NCBI GenBank assembly: GCA_000092065.1 | Contig: CP000587.1 | Strand: one strand, 5' to 3' | DNA from: Ostreococcus lucimarinus | Taxonomy: Eukaryota | DNA: 64,000 nt | Part shown: positions 55,882-60,631 of the stretch, in pieces | Layout of the letters: each line of letters opens with the position of its first letter | Numbering within the stretch: the stretch's first letter is position 1 | Notes under the pieces: model-generated | Told to the model about the DNA's origin: nothing | Seen by the model: the letters and a program-made list of their open reading frames with translations, nothing else | Databases searched by the model: none | Position numbers and translations under genes: made by a program

Positions 55882-57048
55882 ATGTTCGCCTCGCGCGCGC
55901 GCTCGATCGCGCGCGCGTTCACCCGCGCGCGCGCGCTCATCGCGCTCGCGTGCGTCGCGCGCGTCGCGCTCGCGCGCGCCGACGAAACGGCGCAAGATGT
56001 CGACGCGCACGCGACGTGGCTCCGACGCGAATTGCCGCGGTATCGCGCGCGCGCGGCGTCGTGCGTCGCGTGCCAGCGCGTGCTCGCGCACTTTGACGAA
56101 CACCTCGTGCTCGCGCTTCAAGACATCACGAACGCGGAGCGACGGAAGGCGACGAGCGCGACGGGGGAAAGGCGATTCGACGCGGCGCGGTACGGCGCGT
56201 ACGAGAGCGTCATCGAAGAGGCGGTGCCGCGAGCGTGCGCGACGACGAGCGTGGCGTTGAATCGAACGCTGCGCGTCGCGTGCGAGAGGATGATCGAAAG
56301 AAGCGAGGATGAGGTGGTGAAGTTGTATTACGAGGTCGGGAAGGCTATGGAAAGAGGAGAGAAGGAAGCGGATTTGGGGGAGGCGCTGTGCGGGGCGAAC
56401 GGCGCGATGGGCGGCGCGTGCGAGGACGCGGAGACGGCGGCGTGGACGGTGTCGGAGTTGGAGGCGCTGGAGACGGCGGCGATGAAGGTTTCGAGGGAAG
56501 ACTTGAATCCGTGGGACACCGCGCCGGGACACGAGGGCGAGTTCCTGAGCGAGCCCGAGTACGCGGCGCCGAAGAAGGGGGAGGTGGCCAGAATCGTTGC
56601 GTCGGATTTTTATAAGCGCATCATTTTGGAGAGAGACATCGACGCGGTGGTGTACTTTTCGTATCCGACGAAGGCCAAGGAGTTTCACGAGGCGTATGAG
56701 CAGACGCACGCGCTTCTCGCCGAAGTCCTGGAGGATGCGAAAGATTTGATCATCGCCCAAATAGACGTCGAGAAGAACGACGTGCCACCTCCGTACGCCG
56801 ACATGGCGACGACGCCGTGCGTGCTGTTGTACCGGGCGAAAAAGAAGGAGAACCCGAGATGGGTCCCCTTGCGCACGGAGGCGGGAGAGTACATCACGGG
56901 CGAGTCTGCGCCCACACTCGCAGACGTGTTGACCATGGTGAGCAAGAACGCAAAAACAAAGAAGACAAAACGCGAAGCCGACAAAGCCTTGGTCGAGGCC
57001 TCGGCGGAGGAATTGCACTCGAATCGCGCGAAGGATGATGAACTGTAG
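55882..57048 (+). CDS. ER-lumenal ERp29-like thioredoxin-fold chaperone with signal peptide and C-terminal KDDEL retrieval signal
   Basis: Signal peptide. ERp29-like b-type Trx fold without CxxC (VVYFSYPTKAKEFHEAYEQ). Ends ...AKDDEL. Confidence 0.55.
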   Translation: MFASRARSIARAFTRARALIALACVARVALARADETAQDVDAHATWLRRELPRYRARAASCVACQRVLAHFDEHLVLALQDITNAERRKATSATGERRFDAARYGAYESVIEEAVPRACATTSVALNRTLRVACERMIERSEDEVVKLYYEVGKAMERGEKEADLGEALCGANGAMGGACEDAETAAWTVSELEALETAAMKVSREDLNPWDTAPGHEGEFLSEPEYAAPKKGEVARIVASDFYKRIILERDIDAVVYFSYPTKAKEFHEAYEQTHALLAEVLEDAKDLIIAQIDVEKNDVPPPYADMATTPCVLLYRAKKKENPRWVPLRTEAGEYITGESAPTLADVLTMVSKNAKTKKTKREADKALVEASAEELHSNRAKDDEL

Positions 57049-57402: not shown

Positions 57403-58497
57403 TTAAACAAGCGCCGATGCACGGCACTGCGCGTGCGCGTTTAATGCAGTTTGAGCCTGCTCAACCTCGGCTCGTGAACGAACGCTATGTGCCCATTCGG
57501 TGACGGAAGTCGCCGCTTTCGTACCCTCCGCGGCGCTCGCAAGCGACTTCGCCGCGTGCATCAATTCTCCGTTTGCTAAGTGAGTTTCCGCCTTGGCGAT
57601 GGCGCCTTCAATACCCTGCGCGCCTTCGTCGGATGTATCCTTCACGCGAAGCAGTGAAGCGGCGTACGCTAAACCGTGCGCTAACATACCGCCACCGTCT
57701 TGCGGAACCAACGACAACTTTCTCGCCGTGTCCCGAACGCGTTCCAGCTGTTCCGCCAATTGCAAGCGCGTGGGAACGCCTCGCTTTGCCATATCTTGAT
57801 CCAAGCCTTGAATGATGGTGGCGATGAACGGATCCTTTTTTGCGCACGTGTTGAGCAGCGCTAGTGCGTCTTCGAAGGCTTCGCCGTTCTCCACGCGAGA
57901 TCCGAAATCCATGACGGCGAGCTCAAAGCTTTGCACTGCGTGCGCTCGCTCGAGCGCTTCGCGGCGCTTCGTCAGCACTTGTCTCAAAGCTCCCATGCGG
58001 ATGCGCTCTTCATCTAGCGCCTTGATTCGCTCGATGCGTTCAGCGACCAGAAAGTCTGCGTGCTCTGCTTTCAATTTTTTCTCTTGCGTCTTCAGAGCGC
58101 GTTCTTTATCGACGACGGCGCGCTCCTTTTCTCTTTCGAGTTGACGAGAGGCGTCCTCGGCGCGCTGCTCCAAGACGTTGATCGCAGCGATGAGCTCGTC
58201 CGTAACCGATCGCTCGGCACTGACGACAGTTTCGAAGTTTTGAACCATCGACGAGGATAACTCGCTGAAAATTTTCATGTCGGATTCGGATTGAACCTTC
58301 ATGCCGTCCCTTAACGCCGCCTTTTCGTCGTCGCTCAGAGTTTCTCCGAGTGTTTTGACGGCTTCTTCGAGCAGCCGCGCCGCGCTCAGAGATTTCGAAG
58401 CGTTCATAATGCTGACATTTTCTCGCGCGGGCGGTTTCGGTACGTTCACTTTCGCGAGCACTTCAGGTTCCTTTTGATCCGGTTCGTCTTGCGGCAC
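57403..58497 (-). CDS. MIC60: Mic60/mitofilin (MICOS subunit), exon 2 encoding coiled coil and conserved C-terminal mitofilin domain
   Basis: C-terminal mitofilin signature (RLQLAEQLERVRDTARKLSLVPQDGGGMLAHGLAYAASLL). The first codon of ORF 57403..58497 is GTG immediately after ...cgctcgcag on the minus strand. Confidence 0.7.
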   Translation of the reverse strand: MPQDEPDQKEPEVLAKVNVPKPPARENVSIMNASKSLSAARLLEEAVKTLGETLSDDEKAALRDGMKVQSESDMKIFSELSSSMVQNFETVVSAERSVTDELIAAINVLEQRAEDASRQLEREKERAVVDKERALKTQEKKLKAEHADFLVAERIERIKALDEERIRMGALRQVLTKRREALERAHAVQSFELAVMDFGSRVENGEAFEDALALLNTCAKKDPFIATIIQGLDQDMAKRGVPTRLQLAEQLERVRDTARKLSLVPQDGGGMLAHGLAYAASLLRVKDTSDEGAQGIEGAIAKAETHLANGELMHAAKSLASAAEGTKAATSVTEWAHSVRSRAEVEQAQTALNAHAQCRASALV

Positions 58498-58762
58498 CTG
58501 CGAGCGAAAGACGCGCCGTCAGTACGAGTAAATCTTCGAGTTAATTGCGAATGAAAGATGTCGGCTGGCTCACAGGAACGAGGCGAGGTAAAGCCACGAG
58601 CCTTAGAACTCCAGCGGCGCTTGACGCGCGGTTTGCATGCGTGCGCGCCAAGCTAGCATTTAATGTTGGCCCTTGATAGGTCCGGCGCGGCACCGAGAAG
58701 CCGCGACAGATGAGTATAAGGCCCCGAGAATAAGCGTCACAAAAATACGAAATGTTGCGTAC

Positions 58763-59731
58763 CTCTACGTTGGCGAGGAAGTCCGCGGTCGCGCTGAACG
58801 CGTCCGACAGTTCATCTTTCGCCGTTTCTTTGCCATCCTTCTTCGACTCGGTTGTGGCTTTCTTCGAGTTCGTCAACTCTTTCGCGTCGGGCTGCTTGAC
58901 GATTTCGATTTGCACCTCGACGTCTTTCCGCGCCGCCGCCGCCTTTGGTTTCGCCCGTCGCGGCGGCGGAGGCCTATCTTCCTCGTCCACGACGCTCATG
59001 GAATACGCTAAAAGCGCCGCGATCCCAGCACCGGCGGCGGCTAGAAGCGCCGTGCGATTCGACCCGCTTTCCTCCGTCGGCGTCGCGTTCGCCGCCGCGG
59101 GCGGCGCCGTCGCCGCCGCGCCCGCCGGCTTCGATAACGGCTCCCTCAACACCGTCCCTTTCGTCGCCATCGACTTCGCCTCCGCCAACACCGATTCATG
59201 CAGCGGAAACGTCGCCGCCTTCGCGTGCGGCATCACCCTATTGCCGCTCGTCGGCGGCGGCGCCGCCGTCGCCCGCGCCCGCGCCGTCGCCCGCGCCGCC
59301 GCCGTCGCGTCCCCCATCGTCGCCTTATACGTCCTCGGATCCCCCAACACCGATTCATGCAGCGGAAATTTCTTCGCCGCCGCGTGCGGCACCGCGCGAA
59401 TCTTCCCGATCGGCGGTTTCTTCTTCCTCGACGTCTTCGCCTTCGCCGGCGCCGCGCGCGCCGTCCCCGTCCCCGTCTTCGCCTTCGCCCGCCCCTTTCC
59501 ACCGCCCCTCGCCGTCGCCGTCGCCGCGCCATCCCCCGACGTCGACTTCGTCGTCGTTTTCGTCGTTTTCGTCGCGTATCCGCGTCCGAGCGCGTCCGCG
59601 CGCGCCGCGCGCGTCGCCGACGCCGCGATCCACGCCCGCGCGGTCGTCCCCACGGACGCGCTCGCGCCGCTCCCTCGCGCCGCCATCGCGTCGAGCGCCG
59701 CCGCGCACGCGCGCGCGCGACGCGTCGTCAT
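58763..59731 (-). CDS. MIC60: Mic60/mitofilin exon 1 (mitochondrial presequence, TM anchor, Lys/Ala-rich region)
   Basis: ATG (MTTRRARACAAAL). TM helix (TALLAAAGAGIAALLAYSM). Exon ends ...ANVE directly before GTACGC. Phase-0 splice to 58497 gives a continuous 688-aa Mic60. Inferred intron 58498..58762. Confidence 0.6.
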
Positions 59732-59863
59732 CCCGCGCGCGCGCTCGGGCGTCCGCGCGCGCGACGACGCGATGCGCGACGCGCTGTGCCGTCGCGCGCG
59801 CGACGACGCGCGTCGCCGTCACTTCCGCGCGCGACCCGACGTCGCGCCGGCGACGCGCGCGCG

Positions 59864-60631
59864 ATGTCGACGCCCCGGGCGAGCGTCGCGGCGTTGACCG
59901 CGCCCGCGCGCGTCGGCGCGCGCGCCGCGAGCGCGCGCGGGCGCGACGCGACGCCGTTTCGTCGCGCCGCCGCCGCCCCGCGACGACGCGCGGCGACGGT
60001 CGTCGCCATGGCGCACCCGCGGCGCGTGCAAAAGGTCCAGCAGCAGATGCGACGAGAGATTTCGAGCATGATGCAGAGCGATAAGAACCTGCGAGCGATG
60101 ATCTCGCCCGAGGAACGCATGGGGGTGGATCACATGCTGAGCGTCATGGCGACGGTGGCGGACGTCGAGGTGAGCAACGATTTGCAAGTGGTCAAGGTGT
60201 ACGTGAGCATCCTGGGAGACGAGCGAGGGAAGAATAACGCGATAAAGGGGATGAAACGAATGGAGCAGTACGTGCGAAGGAAGATCGGACGGAGGATGAG
60301 CTTGCGGTTGACGCCGGAGATTCGGTTCATTTACGACGACTCGTTCGAGCGAGGGCAAAAGGTGAGCGCGTTGTTGGATGAGATTCGTTTGGAGAATAGG
60401 AATAAGACGGCGAAAAAGTACGGGAAGGACGCGTTGATGTCGGTGGAGGACGTGATCGCGGAACGGGGGGAAGTGGAGGATGAAGATGAGTCGGAATGGG
60501 GGATGGACGACGACGCGGTGTGGGACGAGATGCTGGACGGCGTCGAGGACGCGTTGAATGACTTTGACGACGACGACGAAGACGACGAAGACGACGAAGA
60601 CGATGAGTCCATTCGCATCATCGACGTGTAA
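59864..60631 (+). CDS. RBFA: ribosome-binding factor A (RbfA), organellar (plastid-type) with transit peptide and acidic C-terminal tail
   Basis: RbfA KH-like core (RRVQKVQQQMRREISSM...LQVVKVYVSILGD...LRLTPEIRFIYDDS). ATG at 59864. Ends with a (D/E)-rich tail. Confidence 0.8.
   Translation: MSTPRASVAALTAPARVGARAASARGRDATPFRRAAAAPRRRAATVVAMAHPRRVQKVQQQMRREISSMMQSDKNLRAMISPEERMGVDHMLSVMATVADVEVSNDLQVVKVYVSILGDERGKNNAIKGMKRMEQYVRRKIGRRMSLRLTPEIRFIYDDSFERGQKVSALLDEIRLENRNKTAKKYGKDALMSVEDVIAERGEVEDEDESEWGMDDDAVWDEMLDGVEDALNDFDDDDEDDEDDEDDESIRIIDV

Follow-up and report, generated by a model that had tools for sequence, protein, structure and literature searches.

Intron-Hosted RNAs and the MIC60 Locus

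A survey of non-coding RNAs in Ostreococcus tauri describes 131 small nucleolar RNAs (snoRNAs), 72 of them located in introns and 35 belonging to the box H/ACA class (Bousquet et al., 2020; PMC7671301). The intronic H/ACA snoRNAs compared here measure 140-200 nt, carry an H box of the form ACAUNA directly after the 5' hairpin, and end 3 nt beyond an ACA trinucleotide; in two cases, Ot-HAsno27 (202 nt) and Ot-HAsno74 (185 nt), an extra stem-loop follows the H box such that three exterior hairpins are formed. A different comparison is offered by alternative splicing under the control of riboswitches or other structures in algal introns, as with the thiamine pyrophosphate (TPP) riboswitches of THI4 and THIC, and by conserved "poison" splice sites. 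The present analysis concerns a 64,000-nt stretch of Ostreococcus lucimarinus DNA (assembly GCA_000092065.1, contig CP000587.1; "the window"), within which a conserved, folded RNA of about 170 nt (hereafter the core) lies in the intron of the gene for the mitochondrial protein Mic60. The locus is, with little room for doubt, the nuclear MIC60 (mitofilin) gene of O. lucimarinus CCE9901, composed of two coding exons separated by one phase-0 intron at 58498..58762. Because this intron holds a conserved folded RNA that has been translated as protein, the public gene models very probably splice MIC60 wrongly. In its intronic location, its length, its hinge and its predicted ACA end, as well as in its predicted third hairpin, the core resembles the O. 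tauri H/ACA snoRNAs described above.

Constraint on the Intron Core

The core makes up about two thirds of the intron and is matched by a covariance model with a score of 207.8 bits at 58552..58731. Aligned as DNA, the lineages share 85-90% identity over intron positions ~38-207; outside that stretch the intron is unalignable except for the splice signals. Specifically, among the five main lineages the core retains 84-92% identity, as compared with 34-49% at the four-fold degenerate sites of exon 2 and 10-49% in the intron flanks, both of which are saturated, and with 63-74% for the amino acids of exon 2. Maintenance of such identity where neutral sites have become saturated indicates that the core is presently under selective constraint. 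That this constraint does not reflect coding is evident from single-nucleotide indels that shift the frame: the "translations" of the intron in related lineages share ...ARTHANRAS.AAGVLRVVASPRLVPVSQPT..., yet do so in differing frames. Taken together, these data make it very probable that the core is a functional RNA element maintained by strong purifying selection.

Intron Boundaries and the Public Gene Models

The original prediction for this locus combined two adjacent minus-strand open reading frames (ORFs) in different frames, 58541..59731, which opens with ATG, and 57403..58497, which opens at GTG, into one gene spliced in phase 0 at GAG|GTG. Each coordinate and sequence statement in that proposal holds, and the two ORFs are out of register because the length of the intron, 265 nt, leaves a remainder of 1 when divided by 3. 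Exon 1 closes with ...GCCAACGTAGAG, after which the strand reads GTACGCAAC, while ...TACTGACGGCGCGTCTTTCGCTCGCAG directly precedes exon 2; removal of 58498..58762 yields an uninterrupted Mic60. The product is 687 residues long rather than about 688, the latter figure having included the stop codon, and would be 672 residues long if initiation occurs at the second Met (59686, the RefSeq start).

Comparative sequence supports splicing at GAG|GTG. In all intron-bearing lineages examined (O. tauri and metagenome lineages L002-L008; at least eight), a GT immediately follows the conserved ...(N/K)VE codon, and the intron has a branch site of the form CTRAC and ends in (C/A)AG. Two intronless orthologues permit a direct reading of the junction. 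In one, metagenome lineage L035, the sequence runs ...AAG GTG GAG GTG CCT GAG..., so that the end of exon 1 abuts the start of exon 2 to the nucleotide; in the other, of the Ostreococcus mediterraneus type (L006/L032; species label assigned by way of sequence clusters at >=90%), the protein reads ADFLANVP-EPEH. Alignment to both, as the original prediction had proposed, is colinear across the junction.

While the two-exon structure was thus predicted correctly, it is not new to the databases: a two-exon model with another donor already exists, and both this model and the structured RNA in the intron were overlooked by the original prediction. The annotated protein (XP_001418964.1; UniProt A4S0F6, P0047) is 735 residues long and is identical to the spliced product throughout exon 2 and, in exon 1, from Met16, at which it starts. 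Past ...FLANVE, however, it carries 63 added residues (VRNISYFCDAYS...LPRLVP) before continuing VPQDEPDQ. The corresponding O. tauri model, a 713-residue "myosin class II heavy chain", has a 52-residue insertion at the same place. In that model (L001:4021-4297; GCA_002158475.1, KZ155778.1), two mini-introns flank a 52-residue "exon" that is the translated RNA core, and the model is likely an annotation artefact as well as a misnomer. The exact spliced 687-residue protein has no entry in the protein collection searched.

Could the RefSeq/UniProt model nonetheless be right, with a 76-nt intron (58498..58573) and a core encoding a 63-residue insertion in Mic60? In O. lucimarinus and in its closest relative, L002, the core can be read through without a frame break, and the GTGAGC donor is a good one. 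Read-through to this downstream GTGAG donor is, however, open and in frame only in these two and in part of the L004 group; it is frameshifted, interrupted by one or two stops, or both in O. tauri, L003, L005, L007, L008, L017, L021, L023, L028, L029, and L031, which places O. tauri and at least nine other lineages at odds with the model. In addition, the O. tauri version requires an extra mini-intron whose AG acceptor is missing 5' of the core in most lineages, both intronless orthologues are without the insertion, conservation is higher for nucleotides than for amino acids, and the stems of the core show compensatory changes. A 63-residue coding insertion is therefore very improbable. A protein-coding cassette exon, as drawn in the O. 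tauri model, was rejected on the grounds that the upstream AG is missing in most lineages and that frames differ. Within a single metagenome lineage (L004, L009, L017, L022, and L028), small indels in the non-conserved 5' flank toggle the exon-1 read-through between open and frameshifted, from which it follows that the 5' flank of the intron evolves freely and the core does not.

Among the junctions considered across these sequences, only GAG|GTG is predicted to give an intact Mic60 everywhere; the public models extended the ORF through the RNA to a cryptic GTGAG donor inside hairpin 3 of the core. As a gene structure MIC60 is ordinary, and the originally predicted junction improves on the public models.

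Folding of the Core

RNAalifold folds the core into three hairpins (Table 1), with the conserved region beginning at the base of hairpin 1 and ending ...CCAGCC(G/A)ACAU. Across 11 distinct sequences, 98.6% of alignment cells are paired, as compared with 35-40% when pairing partners are slid. Double compensatory changes are found in four pairs, three in hairpin 2 and one (GC to AU) at the apex of hairpin 3. A further ~12 pairs show single changes compatible with G.U pairing, which would be A.C on the other strand, and the RNA strand is therefore the MIC60 sense strand. The covariation score was reached by 0 of 500 shuffles, a result drawn from few independent lineages and from a structure derived from the same sequences on which it was tested; the folding z-score is -2.3.

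Two features of the loops were noted by inspection. The loop of hairpin 2 holds the palindrome GCAUGC, which could allow loop-loop (kissing) dimerisation, and the UACUCAU of hairpin 1 complements the GUGAG(U) of hairpin 3. Every position involved is invariant.

Table 1. Positions of MIC60 gene parts and of elements of the intron core in the window.
Feature	Position	Strand	Description
MIC60 exon 1	58763..59731	-	323 codons; Arg/Ala-rich presequence-like N-terminus, transmembrane segment, Lys/Glu-rich linker ending ...ADFLANVE
MIC60 intron	58498..58762	-	Spliceosomal, 265 nt, phase 0, GTACGC...TACTGAC...CGCAG
MIC60 exon 2	57403..58497	-	364 codons + TAA; coiled-coil region and C-terminal mitofilin domain
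5' splice site GTACGC	58757..58762	-	GTGCGT / GTACGT / GTAAGT / GTAGGT in other lineages
Branch-site-like TACTGAC	58518..58524	-	17 nt 5' of acceptor CAG; CTGAC or CTAAC in all lineages
GTGAGCC, donor of the RefSeq/UniProt model (CCT|GTGAGCC)	58567..58573	-	Defines a 76-nt intron (58498..58573); located within the 3' strand of hairpin 3
Conserved structured RNA core (~170 nt)	58556..58725	- (MIC60 sense)	Defined by conservation, covariance model and covariation
Hairpin 1	58668..58723	-	GGCC lower stem, 7/8-nt internal loop (invariant UACUCA / CCU.UCA), 10-bp upper stem, variable apical loop
Hinge ACAUUA	58661..58666	-	Fits H box ANANNA; 14 nt after hairpin 1 upper stem
Hairpin 2	58619..58653	-	11-bp perfect stem, 3 compensatory pairs, invariant 13-nt loop ACGCAUGCAAACC (58630..58642)
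Hairpin 3	58564..58615	-	GCUGG/CCAGC basal stem, invariant AGUUCUAAGG and GUGAG strands, GC->AU covarying apical stem, variable loop
Candidate hairpin 3 pocket strands	within 58564..58615	-	AGUUCUAA/UGUGAG
ACA trinucleotide	58559..58561	-	Invariant; sequence conservation ends 1-3 nt beyond

An H/ACA-Type Reading of the Core

The best overall explanation, and one that is probably though by no means securely correct, is that the MIC60 intron hosts a trimmed, intron-released H/ACA-type RNA; assignment of the core itself to the H/ACA type is about an even call. Debranching followed by trimming is the standard route by which intronic snoRNAs mature. By this route, the MIC60 pre-mRNA would be spliced at GAG|GT...CAG|GTG, the excised lariat would be debranched and then trimmed exonucleolytically to a core protected within a ribonucleoprotein (RNP), and an RNA of about 170 nt would accumulate as a small box H/ACA-type RNP. 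The RNA so produced would consist of a 5' hairpin with an internal-loop pocket, an ACAUUA hinge, an extra stem-loop, a 3' hairpin in which the cryptic GUGAG donor is buried, and an ACA located 3 nt from the end. Splicing itself, release from the intron, identity as an H/ACA RNP and the attendant function are inferred from the conserved features. With no target having emerged from the scans described below, the RNA is for now an orphan.

Several characteristics of the core are consistent with such a designation. Firstly, the hinge reads ACAUUA or AAAUUA in 10 of the 11 distinct sequences, in agreement with the H-box consensus ANANNA. Secondly, the pocket of hairpin 1 is a 7/8-nt internal loop located 14 nt from the H box, within the 14-16 nt expected of H/ACA RNAs. 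Thirdly, the contexts of both boxes have counterparts among the O. tauri H/ACA snoRNAs, namely GGCAACAUUAACC in Ot-HAsno27, GCGACAUUAACA in Ot-HAsno54, and ...GGGACAUCU in Ot-HAsno81. The core has three exterior hairpins, as compared with the two of the canonical hairpin-hinge-hairpin-tail layout, an arrangement for which Ot-HAsno27 and Ot-HAsno74 provide precedent. The core also differs from the O. tauri snoRNAs in its sequence, which resembles none of those listed, in its much higher invariance, in the lack so far of a predicted ribosomal RNA (rRNA) or small nuclear RNA (snRNA) target, and in its host, a gene of mitochondrial architecture rather than of ribosome biogenesis.

A number of observations weigh against the H/ACA assignment, among them the small number of independent lineages behind the covariation score and its partial circularity, as described above. 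The hinge of L008, AAAUUG, departs from ANANNA. In the minimum free energy (MFE) fold, hairpin 3 contains small internal loops only, with no large pocket, and lies 12-13 nt from the ACA rather than 14-16 nt. The top of hairpin 2 includes 27 consecutive invariant nucleotides, which is beyond the invariance typical of guide snoRNAs. Guide-type complementarity to O. tauri U1, U2, U4, U5, U6, and U3 did not rise above shuffled controls, nor did that to the universal rRNA core, for which Escherichia coli 16S and 23S rRNA served as a proxy for Ostreococcus rRNA. Lastly, Rfam 15 returned no match at E<=10 on 58300..58950; at gathering thresholds there were none in the whole window.

Other candidate identities and partners were tried and set aside. 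In a comparison by eye, which drew on the O. tauri snRNA sequences, none of U1, U2, U4, U5, U6, U11, U12, U3, MRP, SRP, 7SK, a telomerase template or SECIS fits the core, and comparison with U17/snR30, likewise by eye, places the m1/m2 motifs in the wrong order. A putative stretch of large-subunit rRNA, CUUAGAACU, is complementary to AGUUCUAAG; this lead was dropped, as the U is misplaced. A 9-mer held in common with Ot-HAsno23 (GTTCTAAGG) is part of the basal stem of that snoRNA and is uninformative.

The negative target search, within the scope given above, is also what would be expected if the core acted in cis, as a riboswitch-like or autoregulatory structure controlling the processing of MIC60 pre-mRNA and never released in trans. 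Hairpin 3 might, for example, hide the GUGAG donor, or the structure might switch between a productive upstream and an unproductive downstream donor. Such a role accords with the occurrence of the element only in the MIC60 intron, with its absence from lineages that lack the intron (+-10 kb searched, no copy), with the placement of an invariant, consensus-like GUGAG donor within a helix, and with the complementarity of UACUCAU to that donor. In most lineages, moreover, use of the downstream donor would bring in premature stops, in the manner of regulated unproductive splicing. The borders of conservation tell a different story: they fall sharply at the base of hairpin 1 and at ACA+3, as for a trimmed RNP, and stop short of the real splice sites and branch site. 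Unlike the algal riboswitches that control splicing, the core matches no known aptamer family, with no ligand-binding family recognised through Rfam; its box contexts match those of local H/ACA snoRNAs, and both O. mediterraneus and L035 have MIC60 without the element. A purely cis-acting role is unlikely.

Alternatively, the core may be a stable, trans-acting, intron-derived RNA of some other or new class, with the loops ACGCAUGCAAACC and AGUUCUAAGG binding protein or RNA. The number of hairpins, three rather than two, and the extreme invariance of the hairpin 2 loop and upper stem would be accommodated by a new class, as would the negative Rfam and target searches and the probable lack of a class for this RNA in the O. 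tauri survey. The ANANNA spacing, the ACA+3 end and the three-hairpin O. tauri precedent are, however, most simply read as H/ACA, and the sequence shows no sign of an Sm site, C/D boxes or Pol III boxes; another class is thus rather improbable.

A Possible Counterpart in O. tauri

Four 8-9-mers taken from the core are not found in the supplementary sequences of the O. tauri survey, which cover snoRNAs only (PMC7671301). The survey does, however, list Ot-mncR130, an unclassified candidate of 152 nt on the minus strand of chromosome 7 (538176-538327; PMC7671301 Table S2), detected at about 2 transcripts per million (TPM) in medium-size libraries and with more reads in small-RNA libraries. When the position of the O. 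tauri element (L001:4074-4240) on the 781,149-bp contig of O. tauri RCC1115 is mirrored, the orientation of contig to chromosome being assumed, it falls at 537,944-538,110 on the minus strand. No candidate other than Ot-mncR130 falls in the mirrored 8-kb interval; Ot-mncR130 lies within about 220 nt of the mirrored element, on the same strand relative to MIC60 and of similar size (152 vs ~170 nt). Compared in this way, by coordinate alone, the core and Ot-mncR130 are plausibly the same RNA, in which case the reads for Ot-mncR130 would be evidence of its expression. Were they so, two further points would count against an H/ACA snoRNA, in that the snoReport/snoGPS screen made no snoRNA call and abundance is low (~2 TPM). 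Only reads in annotated intergenic or intronic sequence were kept in the survey (PMC7671301), and a core annotated as coding sequence could therefore have been truncated or missed.

A separate observation concerns Ot-HAsno66 (O. tauri chromosome 7: 270441-270612; PMC7671301 Supplementary File 3), a low-abundance, 170-nt intronic "H/ACA snoRNA". A sequence within it, GACCCUAAACCUAAACCUGG, is similar to the complement of a telomere repeat of the TTTAGGG type and might be a telomerase-RNA-like template.

Distribution and Origin of the Intron

Scanning of the metagenome collection with an invariant 21-mer of the core identified 23 loci, all 23 of which lie between MIC60 exons 1 and 2. The covariance model (R1) gave no match within +-10 kb of MIC60 in O. 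mediterraneus-type contigs, nor in L035 or the Micromonas-like locus, and the stretches searched in the intronless lineages, 20 kb and 5.6 kb in length, contain no copy of the element. In an outgroup-rooted neighbour-joining (NJ) tree built from the C-terminal domain, lineages with the intron group together as a single clade (80% bootstrap), and the intronless O. mediterraneus and L035 are sisters (100% bootstrap). A Micromonas-like relative (L036; 66% GC), which was reached by exhaustive search, word-indexed protein searches having reached neither Micromonas nor Bathycoccus, is contiguous at the Ostreococcus intron site.

This pattern implies either one gain or two precise losses. On the former account, the intron arose in the ancestor of O. 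lucimarinus and O. tauri when an RNA gene of ~170 nt was inserted at the GAG|GTG proto-splice site, a proposal that is offered tentatively, with the balance against it; it draws on the single intron-bearing clade, the contiguity of sister clade and outgroup, and the lack of a copy in the intronless stretches. Two independent precise losses may instead have occurred.

Intron-creating "introner" elements are known from Micromonas, and the core could in principle be the functionless remnant of such a mobile element or repeat. The confinement of the intron to one Ostreococcus clade and the contiguity of the intronless relatives and the Micromonas-like outgroup at an AG|GT proto-splice site are what such an origin would leave behind. 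A functionless remnant would scarcely retain 84-92% identity amid saturated neutral sites, though, and the hallmarks of a dispersed element are wanting: neither blastn with the intron nor the covariance model detected another copy in the 64-kb window, 0 of the 23 metagenome matches lie outside Mic60, and terminal repeats went unnoticed in the aligned introns, in which no dedicated repeat search was made. Such a remnant is thus hardly credible.

In the Micromonas-like relative, the MIC60 ORF runs in frame through a pyrimidine-rich 129-nt stretch, GTGCGT...TCGCAG (L036:1583-1711), which is probably an intron; the related metagenome ORFs P0109 and P0116 begin just past it. Considered as a homologue of the Ostreococcus intron it was rejected, being ~55 codons downstream and thus not at a homologous position.

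The Mic60 Protein and its Surroundings

Assignment of the locus to MIC60 rests on several lines of evidence. The protein falls in the same cluster as UniProt A4S0F6, "MICOS complex subunit MIC60", and an exhaustive search with the O. mediterraneus-type orthologue as query gave 342 family matches. PF09731 matches the spliced protein over residues 260-679, with the junction inside the match (E=6.7e-32, 111.6 bits; cutoff 27.4). Exon 2 alone gives a stronger match (E=1.3e-37, 130.5 bits), in keeping with the mitofilin domain predicted for the downstream ORF, while exon 1 alone gives none; exon 2 is 63-98% identical to its orthologues. A sequence-profile search of the PDB with Mic60 gave no match. 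The presequence and transmembrane (TM) anchor that the original prediction placed in the upstream ORF are likewise supported by inspection of the sequence: the first 60 residues include 10 Arg/Lys, 2 Asp/Glu and 20 Ala, and residues 227-248 form the sole strong hydrophobic segment. Gene order is also conserved, RPAC1-RbfA-MIC60-...-CobW being found in O. tauri and in metagenome assemblies, and the ORF next to the gene, 55882..57045, matches XP_001418736.1 of O. lucimarinus CCE9901 exactly.

The C-terminal mitofilin domain, single TM segment and presequence-like N-terminus together constitute the layout of the MICOS family. The O. lucimarinus protein departs from it in the length of its pre-TM region, ~225 residues, which with its two PH..A..FPLHES motifs is unusually long by comparison with yeast Mic60, in which only a short segment precedes the TM. 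In full, the motif is (R/N)..(L/M/V)PH..A..FPLHES(V/I), encoded on the minus strand at 59345-59392 (residues 115-129) and 59186-59230 (residues 168-182) of exon 1. Both copies are kept throughout the Ostreococcus lineages, the intronless O. mediterraneus type among them, and the sequence around them is of low complexity and poorly conserved.

Base composition varies across the gene, with a GC content of 70% in exon 1 and of 55-56% in the intron and exon 2. Of all kilobases in the window, 59001-60000 has the highest GC content (76%, against a mean of 61%); it spans MIC60 exon 1 and the short divergent interval separating it from a plus-strand RbfA-like gene.

Significance

Overall, the gene is an ordinary one that carries a passenger RNA of modest interest. 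Its most immediate consequence is for reference proteins: the O. lucimarinus entry A4S0F6 (63 residues too long) and the O. tauri model (52 residues too long) both include translated non-coding RNA and need correction, as this sequence is a contaminant in alignments and predicted structures of a mitochondrial protein that is widely studied. The case shows, more generally, how structured RNAs are missed when gene models absorb them. The core itself adds a strongly constrained, genus-restricted structured RNA to the non-coding RNA catalogue of the smallest free-living eukaryotes. With its occurrence in a single clade, its precise absence from the sister clade and its absence at the site in a Micromonas-like outgroup, it also provides a tractable case in which to ask whether an intron can be kept, or born, because of the RNA that it carries. 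If the gain described above is true, the MIC60 intron would exist because of, and would consist essentially of, a new functional RNA, either a new orphan of H/ACA-like type or a cis-regulatory structure of a new class.

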